60,478 nucleotides of DNA from contig DATLEX010000304.1 in assembly GCA_035525045.1 (NCBI GenBank), positions 1-60,478 of the forward strand, given 5' to 3'. This document shows positions 3,460-46,998 of the stretch, in pieces. A model generated the notes under the pieces. That model was given only the letters and a program-made list of their open reading frames with translations. It ran no database searches and was not told where the DNA came from. The stretch is from Thermoanaerobaculia bacterium. Its GTDB lineage: Bacteria > Acidobacteriota > Thermoanaerobaculia > Gp7-AA8. The stretch's first letter is position 1, and each line of letters opens with the position of its first letter. The translations under genes and the position numbers were made by a program.

Positions 3460-3535
3460 TGGAGCGGGCGACGAGATTCGAACTCGCGACCAAGAGCTTG
3501 GGAAGCTCCTACTCTACCAACTGAGCTACGCCCGC
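3460..3535 (-). tRNA. tRNA-Gly (anticodon CCC)
   Basis: The reverse complement reads GCGGGCG-TA-GCTC-AGTTGGTA-GAGT-A-GGAGC-TTCCCAA-GCTCT-TGGTC-GCGAG-TTCGAAT-CTCGT-CGCCCGC-T-CCA. This is a 76-nt cloverleaf with encoded CCA and anticodon loop TT-CCC-AA. Confidence 0.95.
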
Positions 3536-3597: not shown

Positions 3598-3618
3598 CCG
3601 AGCCCCGAGCCCCGAGCC
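3598..3618. repeat. (CCGAGCC)x3 perfect heptamer tandem repeat, directly abutting the stop codon of the recombinase gene
   Basis: ccgagcc ccgagcc ccgagcc is read at 3598-3618 and is followed by cta (the TAG stop on the minus strand, 3619-3621). It belongs to the same GGCTCGG/GGGCTCR family as 28211-28266 and 39100-39113. Confidence 0.9.
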
Positions 3619-4593
3619 CTATTTCTTCTTGATGGGCAGCTTGGCGGAGGCGTCGAGGAAGATCCGCGTGGCGGGAGGCGGGACGACCGAGCGCCGGCCC
3701 TTCTGGATGGGCAGCTTGGTGTAGACCTGCGTGGAGAGGATGGAGGCGTGGCCGAGGATCTCCTGCACTTCCCGGATGTCGGTCCCGCTGCTGACCAGCA
3801 TGGCGGCCATGGTGTGTCGCAGCGAGTGCGGCGTGACGTGGCGCTTGATCTCCGCCAGCCGGACGTGCTTCTTGAAGATGTTCTCGATCGAGTAGATGGT
3901 CAGGCGCGTTCCGCTGCGGCCGACGAACAGCGCCTGGGTTTCGGGGGTACGCTCACTCCTCAGGTCCAGGTACTGGACCAGCGCATCGATGAGAGGGTCG
4001 GACGTGAGCGTGACCACCCGCCCGCGCGTGGCGCGGCCGGTGATCTGGATGTGCCGCCGGTCGATGTCGACGTCGGTGACGTTCAGCGCCACGAGCTCGC
4101 CGATGCGGATCCCCGTCGAGAAAAGCAGCTCCAGGATCACGTTGTCGCGCACCGCGCAGAAGTAGCGGTTCCGGCCGCCCGGCGACTGATCCCGGGCGTC
4201 GGCCAGGCCGGCGATCTGCTCTTTCGGCGCGGCGAGCAGCGAGCGGACCTCCCGCCCCGACAGCACCGTCGGCACCCGGTTCTCGACCGGACGCTTGATC
4301 CGCAGCTTCCGTGCCGGTGACTCCGACACCACACCCTTCTCTTCGAGGAAGCGGAAGAAGACCTTCAGCGCCGCCACCTTGCGCCGGATCGACGTGTCGC
4401 GGTAGGGTGCCGTTCCGAGCTTGTCCAGATAAGTCTCGAGATCCGCCGGCGTGATGTCCACCATCATGGCGTCGTTCACGTGGTGGTGGAACTGGCTCAG
4501 GTCCGATTGGTAGGCCCGCAGCGTCCGGTCAGACAGGTTGCGCACTGTCTGCCCATGATCGAGAAACTCGGCGATTGCCTGCTGCACATTCAT
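3619..4593 (-). CDS. Tyrosine site-specific recombinase (XerC/XerD-like)
   Basis: C-terminal 324 aa of the 3619..5208 ORF, starting at MNVQQAIAEFLDHGQTVRNLSDRTLRAYQSDL (ATG at 4593). Core-binding SAM-like N-domain. Catalytic region GIRIGELVALNV...HSLRHTMAAMLVSSGTDIREVQEILGHASILSTQVYT (R..HxxR..H..Y). The upstream extension is Pro/Arg-rich and not credible. Confidence 0.85.
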   Translation of the reverse strand: MNVQQAIAEFLDHGQTVRNLSDRTLRAYQSDLSQFHHHVNDAMMVDITPADLETYLDKLGTAPYRDTSIRRKVAALKVFFRFLEEKGVVSESPARKLRIKRPVENRVPTVLSGREVRSLLAAPKEQIAGLADARDQSPGGRNRYFCAVRDNVILELLFSTGIRIGELVALNVTDVDIDRRHIQITGRATRGRVVTLTSDPLIDALVQYLDLRSERTPETQALFVGRSGTRLTIYSIENIFKKHVRLAEIKRHVTPHSLRHTMAAMLVSSGTDIREVQEILGHASILSTQVYTKLPIQKGRRSVVPPPATRIFLDASAKLPIKKK

Positions 4594-4722
4594 TGATCGC
4601 ACTCGGGAAGCTATAGGGAGAGGGCCCGAGGCGAGTCTAACGCCCGGGGGGCCGATGTCAAGAATTATTTGCCCTCTCCATATGCTGTAAAAGCATGAGA
4701 GAATGCGACGTAGCGTCACGCG

Positions 4723-5100
4723 ATGAAAGGCCAGCGACTTTTCGTCCGCGCCATCGAACCCCCCGACCAGGAGGCCGTTCGCGCCTTCCTCGACCGGCAG
4801 CAGGGCCCCGGACGCGTCCCGGCATGCGGTCTGCTCGGGAAGCTCGCCGGCGAACTGGTTGCGGTTCTCGCGATGCAGATCACGGCCGATGCGGTGGAGA
4901 TCGACCAGATTGTGGTAGCGAGGGACCTCCGTCGAAAGCGGATCGGCCGGGTGATGCTGGCCGAGCTGGAGCAGATCGCCGCCAAAATTGACCGGTCCCG
5001 GCTCGTCGTTCGCGGCGCACATGACGGTCACGCCGAGTTTCTGCGGCGGGTCGGGTTCGAGCGGGAGGGTCCCTGGTGGATACGAAAGGTCGGCAGGTGA
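4723..5100 (+). CDS. GNAT-family N-acetyltransferase (small, 125 aa)
   Basis: IVVARDLRRKRIGRVMLAELEQIA matches the acetyl-CoA binding motif (Q/RxxGxG/A-like). Normal amino-acid composition. Divergent from the recombinase gene. Confidence 0.7.
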   Translation: MKGQRLFVRAIEPPDQEAVRAFLDRQQGPGRVPACGLLGKLAGELVAVLAMQITADAVEIDQIVVARDLRRKRIGRVMLAELEQIAAKIDRSRLVVRGAHDGHAEFLRRVGFEREGPWWIRKVGR

Positions 5101-7310
5101 GGCAGGAAAAGGGTCGCGGCTGGTTCGCGACGTCTCTGATGGTGATGCTGCTGGTGTCGTGCGGGCGCTCGGGGAGCGCGGTCGCTCCCCCTCCTGCCCC
5201 CGCGCCACCGGCGATCATCGAGGAGGAGGCACTCCCCGCGAATCTGGCGGAGGCGCGGGCCATGCGCCGGGCGGCGCGGCTCGACCTCTACGAGCGGGGG
5301 CTGCGGCGGATGGCCGAGTCGGAGGACCCCGTGGCGGCCCGCCGAGCGGCGTCTCTGCTGGCGCTCCATCTGTTCGACCAGAGGCGGCTTGACGAGGCCG
5401 TTCCCGCGCTGCAGGCGGCCGCGGCCCGCTCCCCGCTGGTGGCCCCGTTTCTCCAGCTCCGGCTCATCGAGGCGGAGCTCGGGCGGGAGAACGTCGCCGG
5501 GGGCATCGCCGCCGCGGAGGAAGTGATCACCGGCGCGCCGGCCACGACGGCGGCGACCGTGGCCCGGCTGCGGCTGCCGGCCCTGCACGCGGCCGCGGGC
5601 AACGAGGCGGCAGCCGAGGCGACCTTCCAGACGGCGATGAAAGTCGAGATTGACGAGTCGAGCGAGCGAGAGCTGGTCGAGCTCGCCTCTCTCCTCGCCC
5701 AGCACGGCCGGGATGATCTGGCCACGCGCCTGCGCATGCGGCTGCTGCGCGACTACACCGGCGGCCGCGAGACGGAGAGGACCTATGGCCATCTGGTCGC
5801 GATGGCGGACTCGCCGATCGACGCGCTCTCGCTCGAGGAGGCCACGCGCCTGGCCCAGAGCCTGGCCCGGGCGAACCGATACGACCAGGCGCTCGACCTC
5901 CTCGAGCGGATCCGGAAGCGCTTTCCGCAGTCGGCGCAGAGCGAGCTCTATCGAAGCGTCCGCCTCCGGTCGCTGTTCAACTCCCGCAACTATGCGCAGT
6001 TGCTCGCGGAGACGGAGCGGGTCTCGCTGTCCGATCCGGCCCTGCTGCTCCTCCGCGCACGGGCAGCGTGGCGCGACGACCGCCCACAGCAGTTCCTGGC
6101 CGGGCTGGCGGCTGTGGAGAGACGCTTTCCCGGGAGCCGCCAGGCCGTCGAGGCCAAGATCCTTCGCGCCAAGTACTACGTCACCGACGTGATGGACTAC
6201 GCGAAGTCGGTCGCCAACCTCGAGCAGGCCATCCAGGCCGGCGCGGCCGGCAACGACGGCGAGAACGTCTGGACCCTCGGCTGGACCTACGTCCTCTGGG
6301 GGAAGGACGACGAGGCCCTTCGGACGTTCGCGCGGTACCTCCGCACTTACCCCGACGGCGACTACCGCACCAATTCCCTCTTCTGGTCGGCCAAGGTGCA
6401 CGAGCGGAACGAGCGGATCGCTGAGCGCGACGCCAGCCTTCGCCAGCTCATCTCCGAGTACCCGTACAACTACTACGCCTACCGGGCCCGGGAGATCCTC
6501 GGCGAGCCGAGCGTGGCACCGGGCTCGATGGCCAACGGAAACGTGTTCCCCGACATCGACGCGGAACTGGCGGCGGTGCCGAGCGGGCGCCTCGAGAGCG
6601 TCCGGGAGCTGCTGGCCCTCGAGCTGGGGCGCGATGCCGCCCGGGAGATGAAAGCCGTCGCCGCCGCGCACCGGGACAACCTCGGCGCGGCGTTCCTGCT
6701 CGCCGACGTCTACGTCCAGGGCGCCGAACCGTTCCGGGCCACCGGCATCCTGCAGCGCCACTTCCGCCAGTTCGTCCGCCACGGGGGTGAGAACGTCCCG
6801 CGGCGGTTCTGGGAAATCCTCTACCCGCTGAGCTACTGGGAGGCCATCGAGCGGGAGGCTCAACGGCGCGAGCTCGATCCCTATCTCCTGGCCGCGATCA
6901 TCCGTCAGGAAAGCGGGTTCGAGCCGACGGTGGTCTCCAGCGCCGGTGCGGTCGGTCTGATGCAGATCATGCCGAACGAGGCGCCGCGGATCGCCTCGAT
7001 CGCAGGACTCGATGCAATCACGCGCGAGCAGCTCTTCGACCCTCACGAGAACATCGCCGTCGGCGCGGCCGAGTACTCGCAGAAGCTGTCGCGCATGCGG
7101 GCCAACCCCATCCTTGCCATCGCCGCCTACAACGCGGGCGAGGAGGCGGTTGGCAGATGGATTGCCCGGACGCCCATCGGCGACCCGGACTTATTTGTAG
7201 AGTCGATCTCGTACGCCGAGACCCGGCTGTACGTGAAAACGGTGACAAGGAACCGTTTCGAGTACCGGCGGATTTATGAAATGTCGCATGAGTCGCAGCA
7301 GTCGCAGTAG
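5076..7310 (+). CDS. Soluble lytic murein transglycosylase (Slt70-like, helical superhelix N-domain plus SLT domain), probable lipoprotein
   Basis: Lipobox LLVSCG near the N-terminus. SLT catalytic region LLAAIIRQESGFEPTVVSSAGAVGLMQIMP...AYNAGEEAV. GTG start at 5076 (GTG 5097 is also possible) overlaps the GNAT stop. Confidence 0.85.
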   Translation: MDTKGRQVRQEKGRGWFATSLMVMLLVSCGRSGSAVAPPPAPAPPAIIEEEALPANLAEARAMRRAARLDLYERGLRRMAESEDPVAARRAASLLALHLFDQRRLDEAVPALQAAAARSPLVAPFLQLRLIEAELGRENVAGGIAAAEEVITGAPATTAATVARLRLPALHAAAGNEAAAEATFQTAMKVEIDESSERELVELASLLAQHGRDDLATRLRMRLLRDYTGGRETERTYGHLVAMADSPIDALSLEEATRLAQSLARANRYDQALDLLERIRKRFPQSAQSELYRSVRLRSLFNSRNYAQLLAETERVSLSDPALLLLRARAAWRDDRPQQFLAGLAAVERRFPGSRQAVEAKILRAKYYVTDVMDYAKSVANLEQAIQAGAAGNDGENVWTLGWTYVLWGKDDEALRTFARYLRTYPDGDYRTNSLFWSAKVHERNERIAERDASLRQLISEYPYNYYAYRAREILGEPSVAPGSMANGNVFPDIDAELAAVPSGRLESVRELLALELGRDAAREMKAVAAAHRDNLGAAFLLADVYVQGAEPFRATGILQRHFRQFVRHGGENVPRRFWEILYPLSYWEAIEREAQRRELDPYLLAAIIRQESGFEPTVVSSAGAVGLMQIMPNEAPRIASIAGLDAITREQLFDPHENIAVGAAEYSQKLSRMRANPILAIAAYNAGEEAVGRWIARTPIGDPDLFVESISYAETRLYVKTVTRNRFEYRRIYEMSHESQQSQ

Positions 7311-15755: not shown

Positions 15756-15855
15756 GTGTCATCCTGAGCCGGCGCAGCGCGGCGAAGGACCTCCTGCGGC
15801 GATGCGCCAGCGTCGGCAGGGGATCCTTCGCCGTCTTCGCGGCTCAGGATGACAC
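15756..15855. repeat. 100-bp imperfect inverted repeat (GTGTCATCCTGAGCCG...CGGCTCAGGATGACAC) between convergent radC and ilvE. Likely a REP/MITE-like element and bidirectional terminator.
   Basis: Left arm gtgtcatcctgagccggcgcagcgcggcgaaggacctcctgc. The reverse complement of the right arm is gtgtcatcctgagccgcgaagacggcgaaggatcccctgcc. It fills the whole gap between the two stop codons. Confidence 0.8.
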
Positions 15856-15859
15856 AAGC

Positions 15860-16828
15860 CTATCGGGCTGCGAGCGCAGGCTTGTGCGATTCCGCGCCCT
15901 TCCCCGTGTACACCGGCGTCATCCACTTGTAACGGTCGGGGACATCGCCGGCGATGTAGGCGAAGTACTCGTTCTGCACCCGTTCCGTGACCGGACCCCT
16001 CCGCCCCTCCCCGACGGTGATGCGATCGATGCTCCGCACCGGCGTCACCTCGGCCGCGGTCCCGGTGAAGAAGACCTCGTCGGCCACGTAGAGCGCCTCG
16101 CGCGGGATCAAGGTCTCGGTGACCTCGTACCCGAGGTCGGTCGCCAGGCGGATGATCGTATCGCGGGTGATCCCCGCCAGGACCGACGCTCCGAGAGGCG
16201 GAGTCAGGATCTTGCCGTCCCGCACCACGAAGATGTTCTCGCCCGACCCTTCGCTGACGTAGCCGTTGACGTCGAGCGCGATTCCCTCCGCGTAGCCGTC
16301 GGCGCCGGCTTCCGAGCGGATCAGGATCGAGTTCATGTAGTTCGCGGTCGCTTTGGCCAGGGCCGGGAACGTGTTCGGAGCCATGCGGTTCCATGAGGAG
16401 ACGCGGACGTCGACGCCCTGTTCCATTCCCTCCGCCCCGAGGTATTTCCCCCACTTCCAGGCCGCGACCACGACATCGACCGGGCAGGGGCCGGGGAAGA
16501 CGCCGAGTGAATGGAAGCCGCGGTAGACGAGCGGCCGGAGGTAGCAGTCCTCGAAGTCGTTGACCTGAATGATGTCGAGGCAGGCCCGCTTGAATTCATC
16601 CGTTGAATATGGAATGTCGATCCGGTAAATCTTGCAACTGTCGTACAGGCGCCGGATGTGCTCGTCGAGTCGGAAGACGGCCGGGCCGGTCTTGGTCACG
16701 TAGCACCGGATCCCCTCGAAGAGGCCGGAACCGTAATGCAGCGCGTGTGTGAGCACATGGATCTTCGCATCCGCGAAGTCCACGAGCCGCCCGTTCATCC
16801 AGATTTTCTTGACTTCCTCGAACGGCAT
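15860..16828 (-). CDS. ilvE: Branched-chain amino acid aminotransferase (class IV)
   Basis: MPFEEVKKIWMNGRLVDFADAKIHVLTHALHYGSGLFEGIRCY...YLRPLVYRG...GENIFVV...LAGITRD. SD GAGGAGG lies upstream of the ATG. Confidence 0.92.
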   Translation of the reverse strand: MPFEEVKKIWMNGRLVDFADAKIHVLTHALHYGSGLFEGIRCYVTKTGPAVFRLDEHIRRLYDSCKIYRIDIPYSTDEFKRACLDIIQVNDFEDCYLRPLVYRGFHSLGVFPGPCPVDVVVAAWKWGKYLGAEGMEQGVDVRVSSWNRMAPNTFPALAKATANYMNSILIRSEAGADGYAEGIALDVNGYVSEGSGENIFVVRDGKILTPPLGASVLAGITRDTIIRLATDLGYEVTETLIPREALYVADEVFFTGTAAEVTPVRSIDRITVGEGRRGPVTERVQNEYFAYIAGDVPDRYKWMTPVYTGKGAESHKPALAAR

Positions 16829-26530: not shown

Positions 26531-27255
26531 GTGTAGAGCCCGCCGCTGACGTTCACGACCGTGCCGGTGATGTAGGCCGCCTGATCGGACGCCAGAAACA
26601 CAACCGCATTGGCGACGTCCTGAGGAGCTCCGAGGCGGCGCAGGGCGATCCTCTCCTCCAGCTTCTCCCGCGCGCCCTCGAGGAGGGCTTCGGTCATGGC
26701 GGTCTCGATGAAGCCGGGCGCGACGGCGTTCACGGTGATGTTCCTCGATCCGATCTCGAGGGCCAGCGACTTGGTGAAGCCGATCAAGGCCGCCTTCGAG
26801 GAGGCGTAGTTGACCTGGCCGGCGTTGCCCATCAGGCCGACGACCGAGGAGATGTTGATGACCCGCCCCCAGCGGGCCCGGACCATCTTCTTCACGACTT
26901 CCTGGGTGATGTGGAAGGCGGAGTCGAGATTCGTGCGCAGCACCCGAGTCCAGGCCTCCGGTTTCATGCGGATGAACAGGTCGTCCTCGGTGATCCCGGC
27001 GTTGTTGACCAGGATGTCGATGGGCCGCTGCTCGAGCAGCGCCTTCACCTTCTCCCGGACGTCGTCCCCGGCGATGTCGAGCTCCACCGCCGTGGCGTTG
27101 CCGATCTCTTGGGCCACCAGCCGCACGCGGTCGGCGCTGCGCGCCGCGCAGAAGACGTGAGCGCCCGCGGCGCCGAGAGCACGGGCGATGGACTCGCCGA
27201 TTCCACGCGAGGCGCCGGTGACGAGTGCTGTCCTGCCGCTGAGATCGATCTTCAT
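26527..27255 (-). CDS. fabG: 3-oxoacyl-[ACP] reductase
   Basis: MKIDLSGRTALVTGASRGIGESIA, NNAGI, S..G..GNAGQVNYASSKAALIGFTKSLA, VNAVAPGFIET. ATG at 27255 overlaps the fabD stop (ATGA). Confidence 0.93.
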   Translation of the reverse strand: MKIDLSGRTALVTGASRGIGESIARALGAAGAHVFCAARSADRVRLVAQEIGNATAVELDIAGDDVREKVKALLEQRPIDILVNNAGITEDDLFIRMKPEAWTRVLRTNLDSAFHITQEVVKKMVRARWGRVINISSVVGLMGNAGQVNYASSKAALIGFTKSLALEIGSRNITVNAVAPGFIETAMTEALLEGAREKLEERIALRRLGAPQDVANAVVFLASDQAAYITGTVVNVSGGLYT

Positions 27256-28205
27256 GCCTTGCTCTTCTCCACGAATGCCTCGAGGGTCGGGACGTCGGAG
27301 ACGTTCACCAGCTCGACGGAACCATCGATGCGCCGGATGAGCCCCGTCAGGACATTGCCGGGGCCGACTTCCACGAACCGGCGCACGCCCATCGAGATCA
27401 TCCTCTGGACCGATTCGACCCAGCGGACCGGCGATGCCACCTGCCGCAGCAGCGCGTTCCGCACGGCGTGCGCGGTGCCGATCGGCGAGGCGTCGACGTT
27501 CGACACCAGCGAGAGCCACAGGTCGCGGATCGCCGCCGTGTCCAGGACCGGCCGCAGGCGTTCCTCGGCCGGCTTCATCAGCTCGCAGTGAAACGGGGCG
27601 GACACCGGAAGGGGAAGGGCGCGGCGAACGCCGCGCTTCTTCGCCACCTCGATGGCCCGCTCGACGCCGCTCTTCGTGCCGGCGATCACGATCTGTCCCG
27701 GCGCGTTGATGTTCGCCACCGAGACCACCTCACCCTGAGCAGCCTCCCGGCAGATCTCCTGTGCCTCCTCGACCGACGGCCCGATCAGCGCCGCCATGCC
27801 GCCGGTGCCGTCGGGGACGGCTTCCTGCATGAACTTCCCGCGGAGCCGGACGATCGTGGCCGCCTCCGCGGGAGTGAGTCCGCCGACGCTGACCATGGCG
27901 CTGTACTCGCCGAGGGAATGTCCCGCCACGATGTCGCGGCGCGTGGCTCCGAGCTCCTCGAGGACGGCGTGAATCGCCGCCGACACGGTGAGGATGGCGG
28001 GCTGCGTATTTTCGGTCAGCCTGAGGTTGTCGTCCGGGCCCTCGAAGCAGAGCCGGGAGAGCGGAAACCCGAGGGCGGCGTCGACCTCGTCGAAGACCTT
28101 CCGGGCGGCGGGAAAGCGTTCGGCCACGTCCTTCCCCATCCCCGCGTACTGGCTTCCCTGCCCGGGAAAGACAAAGGCGGTGTCGTGCTCCACGGCGCGG
28201 ATCAT
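27252..28205 (-). CDS. fabD: Malonyl-CoA:ACP transacylase
   Basis: FVFPGQGSQYAGMG, GHSLGEYSA, ...VSAPFHC. Confidence 0.93.
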   Translation of the reverse strand: MIRAVEHDTAFVFPGQGSQYAGMGKDVAERFPAARKVFDEVDAALGFPLSRLCFEGPDDNLRLTENTQPAILTVSAAIHAVLEELGATRRDIVAGHSLGEYSAMVSVGGLTPAEAATIVRLRGKFMQEAVPDGTGGMAALIGPSVEEAQEICREAAQGEVVSVANINAPGQIVIAGTKSGVERAIEVAKKRGVRRALPLPVSAPFHCELMKPAEERLRPVLDTAAIRDLWLSLVSNVDASPIGTAHAVRNALLRQVASPVRWVESVQRMISMGVRRFVEVGPGNVLTGLIRRIDGSVELVNVSDVPTLEAFVEKSKA

Positions 28206-28210
28206 ACACA

Positions 28211-28266
28211 GGGCTCAGGGGTCGGGGCTCAGGGCTCCGACCCACCCTCCCTCCGAGCCCCGAGGC
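28211..28266. repeat. Inverted arrays of a GGGCTCR heptamer: GGGCTCA GGGGTCG GGGCTCA GGGCTCC ... CCGAGCC CCGAGGC. They fill the plsX-fabD spacer.
   Basis: Read directly. Four tandem imperfect heptamers at 28211-28238, a 14-nt spacer, then two reverse-complement heptamers at 28253-28266. Only 5 nt from the fabD start and 6 nt from the plsX stop. Confidence 0.8.
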
Positions 28267-28272
28267 CCCGGT

Positions 28273-29325
28273 TCATTCCGCGGCGAGGGCGGAGGCGTGC
28301 TCGCGGCTGTGGAGGTCGCCGATCTTCTCGCGGATCTTCACGTCGACGCGGTTGAGGGAGAAGTCACGCGCCACGCGGATGGCGTTCTTGATGGCGTTGG
28401 AGTTGGATCGCCCGTGGCAGACGATGCACCCGCCCTTGACGCCGAGGAGGGGCGCGCCGCCGTACTCGGAGTAGTCCATCCGCTTCTTCAGTTCGTCGAA
28501 GGCGCCCCGGAGCAGGAGGGCTCCGACTTTTCGGAAGGGGCTGCGGGTCAACTCTTCACGGAGGGTGCGGCTGACGAACTCGCCGAGAGACTCCGAGGCC
28601 TTCAGCACCACGTTGCCGATGAAGCCGTCGCAGACCACCACGTCGGCGTTGCCGTTGAAGACGTCGCGGCCCTCCACGTTGCCGATGAAGTTCAGTCCCG
28701 TCTCCTTCATCACCCGGAAGGTATCCCGCGTCAGCTCGTTGCCCTTCCCTTCCTCTTCGCCGATGGAGAGAAGCCCCACGCGGGGATGGGAGATCCCGAA
28801 GAGCATCTGGGCATAGAAATGCCCCATGACGGCAAATTCGCGCAGGTGGCTGGGTTTGGAGTCGACGTTGGCGCCGACGTCGAGCAGCACGGTGTGCTCC
28901 CTCGCGTTCGGCAGGATCGCGGCGAGGGCGGGGCGGCTGACCCCCTCGATCGTGCCGAGGACCTTGTAGGCCGAGGTCATGGCGGCGCCGGTATGCCCGG
29001 CCGAGAGCATGGCGTCGGCGCGCCCCTCGGCGATGAGGTTGGCGCAGACCCGGATCGAGGAGTTGCGCTTTTTCCGCAGCGGAGCGAGGGAGTTGTCCCC
29101 CATCTCCACCACTTCCCGGGCATCGACGATCTGCAGGCGGGAGGGGACGGGCGAGACCAGCGTCTTCAGGCGCTCGCGGACGATCTCTTCCTTCCCCACG
29201 ACCAGGATCTCGACCGGGTACTCCTCGATGGCGAGCAGAGCACCTTTGAGGACCTCGTCAGGTGCGTGGTCGCCGCCCATCGCGTCGAGCGCGATGCGGC
29301 AGTCCGCTCTACCGCCGTCCGCCAT
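28273..29325 (-). CDS. plsX: Phosphate:acyl-ACP acyltransferase
   Basis: RIALDAMGGDHAPDEVLKGA...HTGA...GFIGNVVLK...APLLGVKGGCIVCHGRS. Confidence 0.93.
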   Translation of the reverse strand: MADGGRADCRIALDAMGGDHAPDEVLKGALLAIEEYPVEILVVGKEEIVRERLKTLVSPVPSRLQIVDAREVVEMGDNSLAPLRKKRNSSIRVCANLIAEGRADAMLSAGHTGAAMTSAYKVLGTIEGVSRPALAAILPNAREHTVLLDVGANVDSKPSHLREFAVMGHFYAQMLFGISHPRVGLLSIGEEEGKGNELTRDTFRVMKETGLNFIGNVEGRDVFNGNADVVVCDGFIGNVVLKASESLGEFVSRTLREELTRSPFRKVGALLLRGAFDELKKRMDYSEYGGAPLLGVKGGCIVCHGRSNSNAIKNAIRVARDFSLNRVDVKIREKIGDLHSREHASALAAE

Positions 29326-43771: not shown

Positions 43772-45064
<1,293 letters not shown>

Positions 45065-45074
45065 GAGGCGGCGG

Positions 45075-45103
45075 ATTATAAGGGGTGAGGCGCTACCGTT
45101 AAC
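45075..45103 (-). promoter_or_regulatory. Candidate asnS promoter: perfect -10 TATAAT, with a -35-like TTAACG/GTTAAC supplied by the first heptamer repeat. It implies a (near-)leaderless asnS mRNA.
   Basis: The minus strand reads ...CCCCTTATAATCCGCCGCCTCATG. TATAAT (plus-strand attata, 45075-45080) ends 10 nt before the ATG. There is no SD between them. Confidence 0.4.
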
Positions 45104-45142
45104 CGTTAACCGTTAACCGTTAACCGTTAACCGTTAACCGTT
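45096..45142. repeat. (CCGTTAA)x6.7 perfect heptamer tandem array (six GTTAAC palindromes at 7-bp phasing)
   Basis: Read directly: ccgttaa x6 then ccgtt. Confidence 0.95.
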
Positions 45143-45144
45143 GG

Positions 45145-45182
45145 ATTGTACTAGCACAATATTGGTTTTGTATCAGAACAAT
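45145..45182. promoter_or_regulatory. Two TTGT-N6-ACAA palindromes 22 bp apart (ATTGTACTAGCACAAT and TTTGTATCAGAACAAT): candidate operator pair
   Basis: 45145-45160 is a 16-bp palindrome with one mismatch. 45167-45182 shares the TTGT/ACAA core. Both lie in an AT-rich core between the heptamer arrays. Confidence 0.3.
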
Positions 45183-45231
45183 TCAGTTCGCGGGGTTGAT
45201 CAGCAGTTGAGCGGCAGATGGTTGAGAACTT

Positions 45232-45255
45232 CGGTTAACGGTTAACGGTTAACGG
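45232..45255. repeat. (CGGTTAA)x3.4 heptamer array, the exact reverse complement of the 45096-45142 array, abutting the dynamin-like gene stop codon
   Basis: cggttaacggttaacggttaacgg is followed immediately by cta (TAG stop, 45256-45258). It can pair over 24 consecutive bp with the left array. Confidence 0.95.
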
Positions 45256-46998
45256 CTACAACCCCTCCACGGCCCGATGAATCTCCCGCGCCTCGCGCTC
45301 GATGGCGGAGAGCTTGGCGGCGAAGCGGTCGATCTTCTCCGACTCGGCGGCGTAGAAGCGCTGGTAGGGCTCGAAGGAGGCGGTGATGGCTCGGAGCATG
45401 CGGTCGATCTCGGTGGAGGACTCCCGGTCGAGGGCCTCGCGGAGCTGCGTGCGGAGCTCCTCGATCCGGTGCTGGAACTCCGACTTGGCCTTGCTGCGCT
45501 TGTAGGGAAGGATGAGGAAGCTGGCGACCAGGAGCATGGTGGCGGCGGTCAGGCCGGTGACGTCGACGGCCGTGCTGCTGACGGCAGCGGTGACCAGGTA
45601 GCCGAGGCCGAGCGCGCCGGCGCCGAGTCCGAAGGAGTGCAGCACGGCGCGCATGGCGGTGTCGATGATGCGCCGGCTCTCCACGTTGACGTCATACGAG
45701 GCGAGGCGCTGCTCGGCATAGGCGCGCATGCGGGAGTAGATCTCCTCGCGGTTGTAGGCGAACTCGCGGCCCACGCGCCCGACGATCTCGGCATCGCGGG
45801 CGTCGCGGCGCGCTCCCTCGTGGAAGGCGTCGACCGTGCTGTTCCACAACTTCATGTTCTCCCTGACCAGCCAGTCCACCGACTCCTGGATCGTGGTGTC
45901 GACGTTCCCCTTGAAACCCTGGAACACCTGCCGGTCGAACTCCTCCCGGAAGCGGAGGCTGTCGCGCAGGAGCATCACGTGCTGGATCCGCACGTAACGG
46001 TCGAGGAAGTCGACGCCCCGCCGCTCCAGGTCCATCATCAGGTTGTCGATGCGGATGACGAACTGCCGGAAGTTGGCCTGCAGGTCGGCGCGGGCGCGCT
46101 CGAGCTGATCGGTGATCGATGTGATGCGCGCCATGTCCGCGGCCAGGAGCTCGCGCCGCGACTCGATCATGGTCATCTGCCTGCCGGTCAGGCCGGTGAT
46201 GGTGTCGAGCGGCGCCAGGAGCTTGATGCGCACCCTCTCCTTCTCGGACAGGACCGTGAAGATGTAGTCCTCGAGGGCCTGGAAGCGGCTGCGCGTCCAC
46301 TCCCGCGGCGACGCGCCGCCGCTCTTGGCCTCCAGCGCCAGCCTGCCGCTCACCGGGTAGACCACCGGATCGAATCCGAAGATGGCCCGAACGTTCGTGT
46401 GGAGGTATGCGAGCACCTCCTCGACCTCCTGGTCGGTCTTCGTGTCGATCTTGTTGAGCACGAAGACGACCTTCTTCCCCCACTCCCGGATGTACTCGAG
46501 AAAACGCCGCTCCGACTCCGACAGCGGCCTGTCGATGGAGGTGACGAACAGCACCAGGTCGGCGCGCGGGATGTAGTCCTCGGTGATCTCCTGGTGGCGC
46601 TGGACGATCGAGTTCGTGCCGGGCGTATCGACCAGGGTGATGTTGCGCAGAAACTCGACCGGGTAGAACTGCTCGACGACGTAGTCCGAGAGCGGCCGCT
46701 CCGCCGCCGCCTCCCCATGTCGCAGGACGGAGATCCGGTCGTCGACCGGGACGGGCCCCTCGGCCCTCAGCTTCGCGCCGAACAGGGCATTGATCAGCGA
46801 GGACTTCCCGGCGTTGAACTCCCCCACCACCACGATGGTGAAGAGGTCCTCCAGCGTGGCCAGCAGCTCCTCGACGCGACGCCGCTCCTCCGACTGCTCG
46901 CCCTCGAGCGTCTCGCGAAGCTGCACCAGCAGGGCGCTCTCCCGGCGCAGGAGGGCCTGCACCTGCGGATCGACGACCGTGTCGAAGATGCCGGGCAT
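45256..46998 (-). CDS. Bacterial dynamin-like GTPase (BDLP family) with C-terminal hydrophobic paddle/TM region
   Basis: G1 VVVGEFNAGKSSLINALFG, G3 LVDTPGTNS, G4 VLNKIDT. Hydrophobic GLGAGALGLGYLVTAAVSS...TMLLVASFLILPY near the C-terminus. Confidence 0.88.
   Translation of the reverse strand: MPGIFDTVVDPQVQALLRRESALLVQLRETLEGEQSEERRRVEELLATLEDLFTIVVVGEFNAGKSSLINALFGAKLRAEGPVPVDDRISVLRHGEAAAERPLSDYVVEQFYPVEFLRNITLVDTPGTNSIVQRHQEITEDYIPRADLVLFVTSIDRPLSESERRFLEYIREWGKKVVFVLNKIDTKTDQEVEEVLAYLHTNVRAIFGFDPVVYPVSGRLALEAKSGGASPREWTRSRFQALEDYIFTVLSEKERVRIKLLAPLDTITGLTGRQMTMIESRRELLAADMARITSITDQLERARADLQANFRQFVIRIDNLMMDLERRGVDFLDRYVRIQHVMLLRDSLRFREEFDRQVFQGFKGNVDTTIQESVDWLVRENMKLWNSTVDAFHEGARRDARDAEIVGRVGREFAYNREEIYSRMRAYAEQRLASYDVNVESRRIIDTAMRAVLHSFGLGAGALGLGYLVTAAVSSTAVDVTGLTAATMLLVASFLILPYKRSKAKSEFQHRIEELRTQLREALDRESSTEIDRMLRAITASFEPYQRFYAAESEKIDRFAAKLSAIEREAREIHRAVEGL

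Follow-up and report, generated by a model that had tools for sequence, protein, structure and literature searches.

The window analysed here is the whole stretch of 60,478 nucleotides of contig DATLEX010000304.1, from a Thermoanaerobaculia bacterium (Acidobacteriota), and the feature under study is a non-coding element at 45095-45255 in which two inverted arrays of the heptamer CCGTTAA enclose an AT-rich core. The element is intergenic and lies within the 191-bp spacer of two minus-strand genes, encoding a dynamin-family GTPase and a class-II aminoacyl-tRNA synthetase (aaRS) taken as asnS. Read on the minus strand, the order is TAG, (CCGTTAA)3.4, core, (TTAACGG)6.9, 14 nt, TATAATCCGCCGCCTC, ATG. 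The closest relatives of the GTPase are found in Thermoanaerobaculia metagenome-assembled genomes (MAGs), at no more than 86% identity, and a look-up of the exact product returned no record. The features of the locus are:

45256-46998, minus strand: dynamin-family GTPase gene, 580 aa, Dynamin_N/MMR_HSR1, upstream of the element
45256-45258, minus strand: TAG stop codon of the GTPase gene, touched by the short arm
45232-45255, unstranded: short arm, perfect (CGGTTAA)x3.4, the reverse complement of the long arm
45195-45229, unstranded: three GTTGA motifs; weak 11-nt repeat at 45195-45217 (2.1 copies, 83% matches, score 32)
45167-45182, unstranded: palindrome 2, TTTGTATCAGAACAAT, with TTGT-N6-ACAA at 45168-45181, 22 bp from palindrome 1
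45145-45160, unstranded: palindrome 1, ATTGTACTAGCACAAT, with TTGT-N6-ACAA at 45146-45159
45143-45231, unstranded: core or loop, 89 bp, 44% GC, between flanks of 64-75% GC
45095-45142, unstranded: long arm, perfect (CCGTTAA)x6.9, which on the minus strand reads (TTAACGG)n and is the 3' arm of the hairpin
45097-45102, minus strand: TTAACG in the last array unit, 16 nt upstream of TATAAT, -35-like (4/6 matches)
45081-45094, minus strand: 14-nt spacer from the element to the -10-like box, AGCGCCTCACCCCT, resembling the 8-nt spacer CCTCCCGC of the related locus L136
45075-45080, minus strand: TATAAT, 10 nt ahead of the asnS ATG, part of the TATAATCCGC box, presumed -10 element
45062-45064, minus strand: start ATG of asnS
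43772-45064, minus strand: downstream gene, regarded as asnS; its product is a class-II aaRS (Asp/Lys/Asn type) that carries an OB anticodon-binding domain

Tandem Repeats Finder (TRF) reported both arms as 100%-perfect period-7 arrays, of 6.9 copies (45095-45142) and 3.4 copies, in agreement with the perfect inverted arrays described in the initial annotation of this DNA. The element possesses terminal inverted repeats, made of tandem arrays, which allow 24 nt of perfect pairing in several registers across the 89 bp between them. Searched with up to two mismatches, the 14-mer CCGTTAACCGTTAA gave 15 matches in the 60-kb window (0.06 expected), and 15/15 fell inside the two arrays. A genome-wide scan for CCGTTAA arrays and TTGT-N6-ACAA had been proposed as a check; within the window, every dimer match and both copies of the motif lie in this element. 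On the minus strand the short arm forms the 5' arm of the hairpin and starts right at the stop codon, with the TAG supplying the first three bases of the first unit, in phase (TAGCCGT, then TAACCGT x3). Folding of the minus-strand RNA gave a stem of ~25 bp at -75.7 kcal/mol (z = -6.1), as anticipated for a long, slippery stem directly after the stop codon, and the fold of the element as single-stranded DNA gave z = -5.9. The unequal arms (3.4 vs 6.9 copies) are as expected for slippage, consistent with the slipped-strand variation that had been suggested.

The unit CCGTTAA consists of the 6-bp palindrome GTTAAC plus one base (C or G), so that C-type and G-type arms differ at one base in seven, and each array is nearly self-complementary. 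TAA occurs on both strands of the unit and three units therefore stop all six reading frames. Runs of G or C in the unit are shorter than three, and the G-tracts of a G-quadruplex were not found in it. The claim of nine phased GTTAAC palindromes held, with 9 of the 10 window sites in the arrays and 1 in the rest of the 60 kb, where ~1.0 was expected for the whole window. Nine HpaI-type sites at 7-bp spacing could be a pad on which a GTTAAC-specific restriction system or methyltransferase, a nucleoid protein, or else a heptamer-reading single-strand-binding protein settles. Such a role would suit a unit that is a 6-bp palindrome plus one base, with arms that differ at 1/7 positions, and a passage in PMC4679880 cites proteins of the CspB type as binding one heptamer each. 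However, hairpins with AAGGCAG, AACGAGC and CACCAGG units lack the palindrome, so that a GTTAAC reader cannot explain the class, and outside the arrays GTTAAC is neither avoided nor enriched (1 vs ~1 expected). We give this explanation very little credence.

Orthologous GTPase-asnS gene pairs were taken from metagenome and MAG contigs and compared with the window (WIN). In L136 and L137 the site is empty, with 8 nt only in the arrangement TGA-CCTCCCGC-TATAATCCGC, while elsewhere it is differently occupied, a presence/absence polymorphism at one orthologous position. Other hairpins, four of them with other heptamers, stand in its place in relatives: L116 carries (GCCTCRG)4, 35 nt, (CYGAGGC)4, as a single copy at 5744-5846; L191, from a sample shared with L116, carries two L116-like, GCCYSAG-armed hairpins in tandem (2553-2870); L192 carries (GCCYTAG)2, a loop and (CTARGGC)4; and L128 carries (AAGGCAG)9, a core and (CTGCCTT)6. 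Other long palindromes, with stems up to ~48-70 bp, were found in L117, L193, L138, L190 and L189. As L136 and L137 are empty, the window element is a gain of ~160 bp and the site can be called a hairpin hot spot. The stop TAG is in phase with the first unit in each of the five heptamer cases (WIN, L116, L128, L191 and L192), reading TAGGCCT then CAGGCCT in L116, TAGGCCC then TAGGCCT in L192, and TAGAAGG then CAGAAGG in L128. The far arm ends 2-5 nt from TATAAT in L191, L192 and L128, and 14 nt are left in the window. Related loops occur in both orientations: the L116 loop aligns to both L191 loops only as its reverse complement (score 16 vs 3), and the loops of array-joining contigs from two sequencing runs, X1 and X2, align only in opposite orientation (score 10 vs 2). 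Either the inverted arms may recombine and invert the loop, or elements may insert in both orientations.

Long hairpins were also seen in relatives in the spacer upstream of the GTPase gene, after a DAGK-like gene (L192 1911-1990, L190 2280-2490, L193 1847-2000 and L128 1-166). The L192 hairpin there is heptamer-armed, (GCCCTCG)3/(CGAGGGC), and the L128 element, cut by the contig end, has (GGTGGAC)/(GTCCACC) arms. Short-read contigs stop repeatedly in hairpins at the GTPase-asnS site (L118 5766, L119 3713 and runs X1-X4).

Period 7 dominates perfect arrays in DNA related to the window. In 308 kb of non-redundant Thermoanaerobaculia DNA, 11 perfect tandem arrays of at least 3 copies have period 7, whereas periods 5, 6 and 8-12 account for 0-2 arrays each. 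The period-7 arrays mostly come as inverted pairs with a loop between them; the likeness to heptamer repeats of the short tandemly repeated repetitive (STRR) type that had been remarked on is upheld by this excess. A scan of one genome per species recovered (CCGTTAA)3 at no fewer than 115 loci in many phyla, the matches listed including Acidobacteria, Thermoanaerobaculia, Vicinamibacteria, Gemmatimonadaceae, many Kamptonema/Microcoleus/Tychonema, Bacteroidota and Clostridia. Arm types were told apart by exact diagnostic 13-mers. Among the matches listed, acidobacterial elements have the window polarity of C-array, loop, G-array in 10 cases and the opposite in 1, and the cyanobacterial ones mostly have a G-array abutting a C-array without a loop; related cyanobacteria gave, among the fetched loci, no orthologous CCGTTAA locus pairs between which copy number could be compared. 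By rough open reading frame calls, ~24 of 37 acidobacterial elements have a stop codon no more than ~20 nt away, and for 3 of 37 the flanking genes are divergent. CCGTTAA inverted pairs are a multicopy, stop-codon-adjoining family in other Acidobacteria. The MAG CALMZP01 alone has at least 17 CCGTTAA loci, and many dispersed copies are likewise present in Kamptonema. In five or six of the CALMZP01 copies the linkers are homologous and an inner palindrome (CACGTCAYCCTGAGSCG...CSGCTCAGGRTGACGTG) recurs, which indicates that this composite has multiplied as a unit. The same inner palindrome, of the form GTCAYCCTGAG...CTCAGGRTGAC, is flanked at different loci by inverted arrays of at least four unrelated heptamers: it lies between CTTGGTG/CACCAGG arrays in L061 and AAGGCAG arrays in L128, stands beside CGCTAAC and GCTACCT arrays at the L116 contig end, and is present also in L152.

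Further heptamer arrays and related palindromes were noted. A second heptamer hairpin in the window, at 28206-28272, reads (CAGGGCT/CAGGGGT/CGGGGCT/CAGGGCT), 16 nt, (CCGAGCC CCGAGGC) and fills the whole spacer between plsX (28273-29325, minus strand) and fabD (27252-28205, minus strand); its units belong to the GSCTCRG family, as in the L116 and L191 hairpins. A perfect (CCGAGCC)x3.1 array at 3598-3619, which has no inverted partner, has as its neighbours a tRNA gene (3463-3535, minus strand) and the stop of a gene for a 529-aa tyrosine recombinase with a Phage_integrase domain (3619-5208, minus strand), and may be the edge of an integrated element. The inner palindrome occurs alone in the window as a 105-bp element at 15756-15860 (GTGTCATCCTGAGCCG...CGGCTCAGGATGACAC), wedged between the stops of RadC-like and class-IV aminotransferase genes; its stem contains GGCTCAG, the unit of GSCTCRG arrays, its core also adjoins (CGGTTAA)4 in a Myroides genome (L042), and no Rfam entry matched it. 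Arrays of at least three CCGTTAA units are present in 12 IMG/VR viral contigs (L177-L188), four of them from one giant-virus MAG, GVMAG-S-1101161-78, and several phage-like contigs have an additional small hairpin after the array. On one 4.4-Mb Ulvibacterium contig two CCGTTAA-type arrays (L006 2919-2938 and L111 949-968) lie 2.5 Mb apart, and their 250-nt flanks are 100% identical in swapped, inverted order, which points to an array-bearing repeated element of at least 500 bp. The CCGTTAA dimer, in any rotation, had no match in the papers searched, and literature matches to 7-mers and 11-mers were primer noise only.

The main rival explanation for the GTPase-asnS site is a selected structural hairpin that is not mobile. 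Under this explanation a strong stem is needed after the GTPase stop, for example as a terminator, an insulator ahead of the asnS promoter or an RNase III site, and slippage and concerted evolution of the arms of one ancestral hairpin have produced lineage-specific heptamers. The boundaries are the same in WIN, L116, L117, L128, L138, L189, L190, L191 and L192, running from the stop codon to 2-21 nt from TATAAT, and 5/5 heptamer cases have the first unit phased with the stop codon. The units of L116, L191 and L192 (GCCTCAG, GCCCGAG and GCCYTAG) are 1-2 substitutions apart, as expected for drift in place, and in L193, which lacks asnS downstream of the GTPase gene, that gene still has the L117-type hairpin. 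However, L136 and L137 lack any hairpin, a derivation of CCGTTAA and AAGGCAG from GCCTCAG is not plausible, and the occurrence of CCGTTAA at many unrelated loci and genomes argues for dispersal or a sequence attractor. The terminator role, also put forward in the initial annotation, found no support: there are 0 intrinsic-terminator-like sites in 44800-45500, no T-run follows the stem, where the sequence is AGCGCCTCACCCC, and the similar heptamer hairpin at 28206-28272 lies inside the plsX-fabD spacer. As it has no U-tract, the element is not a canonical intrinsic terminator. An immobile, selected hairpin is a genuine but doubtful possibility.

The core is AT-rich as claimed (44% GC against 64-75% in the flanks), and its two TTGT-N6-ACAA palindromes, 22 bp apart, are the only two in the window, where 0.08 would be expected. 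In dinucleotide shuffles of the AT-rich core alone, a 4-N6-4 palindrome occurring twice with the same arms had P ~2e-4. Together the two palindromes make an inner, imperfect hairpin in the RNA fold and in the DNA fold alike. Three GTTGA motifs are present as described, but they amount only to the weak 11-nt repeat listed above. Homologues of the 89-bp core were absent from the orthologous loci, ~190 fetched loci and PLSDB plasmids, and no indexed run contains words from the core.

Public runs X1-X4 were compared with the locus as k=31 contigs, which end inside the arrays. Contigs of X1, a soil run, match both flanks at 99.6-100% identity, and their depth over 45150-45219 is zero; array depth in this run is ~4,800-6,600, against 8-17 for the flanks. 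One X1 contig joins both arrays over AGGGGGTCATTCCCGCACGA at a flank-like depth of 8.07 (7.84 for the flank), and an X2 contig likewise joins the arrays at depth 3.4, with 3.4-5.2 for the flanks. The short loops of these contigs are GC-rich and 20-21 nt long. The X1 short-loop contig carries no unique flank and may for that reason stem from another locus. X1 contigs end at window positions 45103 and 45232, and the X1 unitig from the asnS side stops ~21 nt before the point forced by the array alone, an early end that hints at more than one allele in the sample.

These data bear on the explanation that the arrays are real but that the 89-bp core was produced by chimeric assembly or belongs to a rare strain variant, the true locus being a short-loop hairpin. 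A foreign array-core-array segment would then have been threaded between the true flanks through an array hundreds-fold commoner than the genome in the metagenome. The 44% GC of the core in a contig of ~68% GC, its zero depth in X1 between flanks of 99.6-100% identity, its absence from all indexed runs and the short-loop array-array contigs at flank depth (8.07 vs 7.84; 3.4 vs 3.4-5.2) are all consistent with this. On the other hand, the 24-nt right array is shorter than the usual k-mer or read, so that a join normally needs real reads; the short-loop contigs, having no unique flank, may be other CCGTTAA loci of the same genome at the same depth; and the source sample may simply lie outside the run index. 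The core may be specific to one strain, may be a nested insertion or may stem from a chimeric join made through an array of very high copy number, and we judge a chimera or rare variant to be unlikely.

Downstream of the element, TATAATCCGC-N5/6-ATG (window 45065-45080) is invariant ahead of asnS in 14 distinct Thermoanaerobaculia orthologues, whatever the upstream sequence (for example L116 5847 and L136 4255), and no conserved -35 or Shine-Dalgarno-like motif was found near TATAATCCGC in the 14 orthologous loci. The box presumably serves as the -10 element for an asnS mRNA that is almost leaderless. Within 700 bp, TTAACG-16 nt-TATAAT was the one sigma-70-like match (10/12 positions; 0.1 expected). 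The -35 box supplied by the array is probably an accident of phasing, since a period-7 array presents a unit at 16-18 nt spacing in ~3/7 registers. The window had no Rfam match at gathering score, 44900-45450 gave only noise at E ~8-9, and the cores of six related elements gave no Rfam matches. A T-box or other known leader for asnS was rejected, as Rfam gave no match.

The palindrome pair had been proposed as a tandem operator. In its fullest form this explanation makes the palindromes the operators of a dimeric repressor and the array the asnS -35 element, with array length tuning expression by phase variation. The pair is non-random for the local composition (P ~2e-4) and the sigma-70-like match is the sole one in 700 bp. 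However, the core is absent upstream of every orthologous asnS, where TATAATCCGC-N5/6-ATG is the invariant feature and no -35 is conserved; it has no homologue in the searched loci, plasmids and runs and is missing from X1. Moreover, this model puts the operators 65-105 bp upstream of the -10 box, past a 48-bp array, and the -35-like hexamer is given by chance in ~3/7 registers. We therefore regard a regulatory module as very unlikely. Overall, the anatomy, the slippery stem and the likeness to heptamer repeats set out in the initial annotation were retained, whereas the terminator, the operator pair and the novelty of the layout were not.

Taken together, the element at 45095-45255 is, we consider it somewhat probable, a palindromic repeat similar to repetitive extragenic palindromic (REP) sequences and miniature inverted-repeat transposable elements, known as MITEs, with arms of simple sequence, gained after the stop codon. 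The class to which it belongs is best read as non-coding palindromic repeats of Thermoanaerobaculia and other Acidobacteriota whose arms are heptamer arrays and their reverse complements. The position is of the REP type, at a gene 3' end and with an inverted doublet able to form a hairpin. The arms would lengthen and shorten independently by replication slippage, which would explain 3.4 vs 6.9 copies, and the inverted arms would form a perfect stem, at least 24 bp long, where the GTPase mRNA has its 3' end, or else a DNA hairpin or cruciform; they may also flip, replace or exchange the loop. Judging by what is established for REP elements and RNase III, a stem flush with a stop codon could stop 3' exonucleases, be a substrate of RNase III or impede the ribosome as it terminates. 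Any effect on the host would be at most that of a REP-like 3' hairpin, which might act as a barrier at the 3' end, as a site for RNase III or processing, or as an insulator ahead of the asnS promoter, and the element may be selfish or nearly neutral.

Several observations weigh against this reading. The scan of the 60 kb found one CCGTTAA element only. The 5-bp sequence GCTAC lies on both sides of the window copy, but no consistent target-site duplication was common to 14 other copies. No transposase or RAYT-like gene was identified, although no search aimed at them was made. No related element has a loop that resembles the AT-rich core, and public runs do not confirm it. Nearly every relative that keeps the gene pair has a strong hairpin at this spot, and its recurrence could reflect selection for the structure rather than repeated selfish insertion. 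Lastly, no RNA runs were found for the locus, so that every statement made here about a transcript is an inference.

A more far-reaching proposal is that heptamer-armed hairpins are a distinct, self-renewing class of repeat whose arms are built on the spot and not inherited. It is suggested by the association of one inner palindrome with at least four heptamers, by three unit families at one site, by the outermost unit being always in phase with the stop codon, and by the flipped loops; we nonetheless hold it to be improbable. It would imply a dedicated or polymerase-intrinsic mechanism with 7-nt steps, together with template switching across the hairpin, by which arrays nucleate, mirror and extend around any palindrome up to the selected sequence, and it would account for the surplus of heptamer repeats that has long been remarked on in bacteria. 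In many bacterial genomes, heptanucleotide arrays are the long simple repeats with the strongest over-representation. The GTPase-asnS site offers a natural series in one place (an empty site, three heptamer unit families, tandem doublets, flipped loops and non-repetitive palindromes), and is a test bed for movement against growth in place, for the rates of arm slippage and loop inversion, and for the effect of a stop-flush stem of 24-70 bp on the upstream mRNA and the following promoter. Heptamer arrays also break short-read assemblies, and may seed chimeric joins in metagenome assemblies.

Comparison with known systems places the element between several kinds of repeat. Intrinsic terminators likewise have a stem-loop directly downstream of a stop codon, but they have a U-tract and a short loop, whereas here there is no U-tract, stems in the family reach 24-70 bp and the loop is up to at least 89 nt. 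REP elements, with their BIME and REPIN arrangements, are also short non-coding palindromes at gene 3' ends, between co-directional or convergent genes, which form long hairpins as inverted doublets and vary in presence or absence at orthologous sites. REP elements act on the stability of mRNA 3' ends rather than as classical terminators. Each REP arm is a unique, imperfect palindrome, 20-40 nt long, that bears a conserved GTAG-type head, and REP elements are tied to a RAYT (Y1) transposase, whereas the arms here are simple-sequence arrays in which no head motif was seen. MITEs such as Correia, ERIC/IRU and Nezha resemble the element in their length of 100-350 bp, their terminal inverted repeats, a non-coding core of different composition, nested palindromes and a multicopy state in at least one genome (here CALMZP01). 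They differ in having fixed transposase-binding ends where the present elements have tandem arrays of variable length, with no consistent target-site duplication and no related autonomous insertion sequence (none was sought). A further MITE of this kind is that of Porphyromonas gingivalis, with an internal minisatellite (PMC4596501).

Among heptamer repeats, the STRR sequences of cyanobacteria, reportedly described by Mazel in 1990, are the classical case. The STRR1-3 units of heterocystous cyanobacteria are CCCCAGT, TTGGTCA and CAACAGT; CCGTTAA differs from them, and identity to STRR was not found. A second heptamer, TAACTGA, forms arrays that are patchy across phyla (MacGregor 2015, PMC4679880). 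STRR and TAACTGA arrays share with the present elements their intergenic tandem heptanucleotides, many copies, patchy distribution across phyla and proposed origin by slippage. They are mostly single direct arrays, however, with TAACTGA lying just upstream of start codons, whereas acidobacterial CCGTTAA elements follow stop codons as a C-type array, a loop and a G-type array. According to Mrazek 2007, in the form cited in passages of PMC4679880 and PMC4692102, heptamers are the most abundant long simple repeats of bacteria, and slippage was proposed.

The closest counterpart is found in Xanthomonas, in which Rehm et al. 2015 reported ~185 GGGAATC heptamer arrays per genome and 70-75 convergent pairs able to form stem-loops (PMC4692102). 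These, too, are intergenic tandem heptamers of variable copy number in which close arrays on opposite strands could yield a stem-loop or cruciform, and they vary extensively in length between related genomes by a mechanism left unexplained (PMC4692102). Given these convergent arrays, and given that CCGTTAA arrays are common in MAGs of Acidobacteria, the suggestion that such repeats and their inverted layout are new to this type of genome does not hold. The window element is a new unit in a new phylum within a known, mechanistically unexplained kind of repeat, known because convergent heptamer arrays had already been reported in Xanthomonas. The G-rich Xanthomonas unit was investigated for its formation of G-quadruplexes, whereas CCGTTAA has no G-tract, occurs in a different phylum and here encloses a core of 89 bp. 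The series at one orthologous site, which rests on the related loci rather than on the window, may be new. PMC4692102 contains neither an empty site nor the replacement of one heptamer by another at an orthologous position, and both are seen here.

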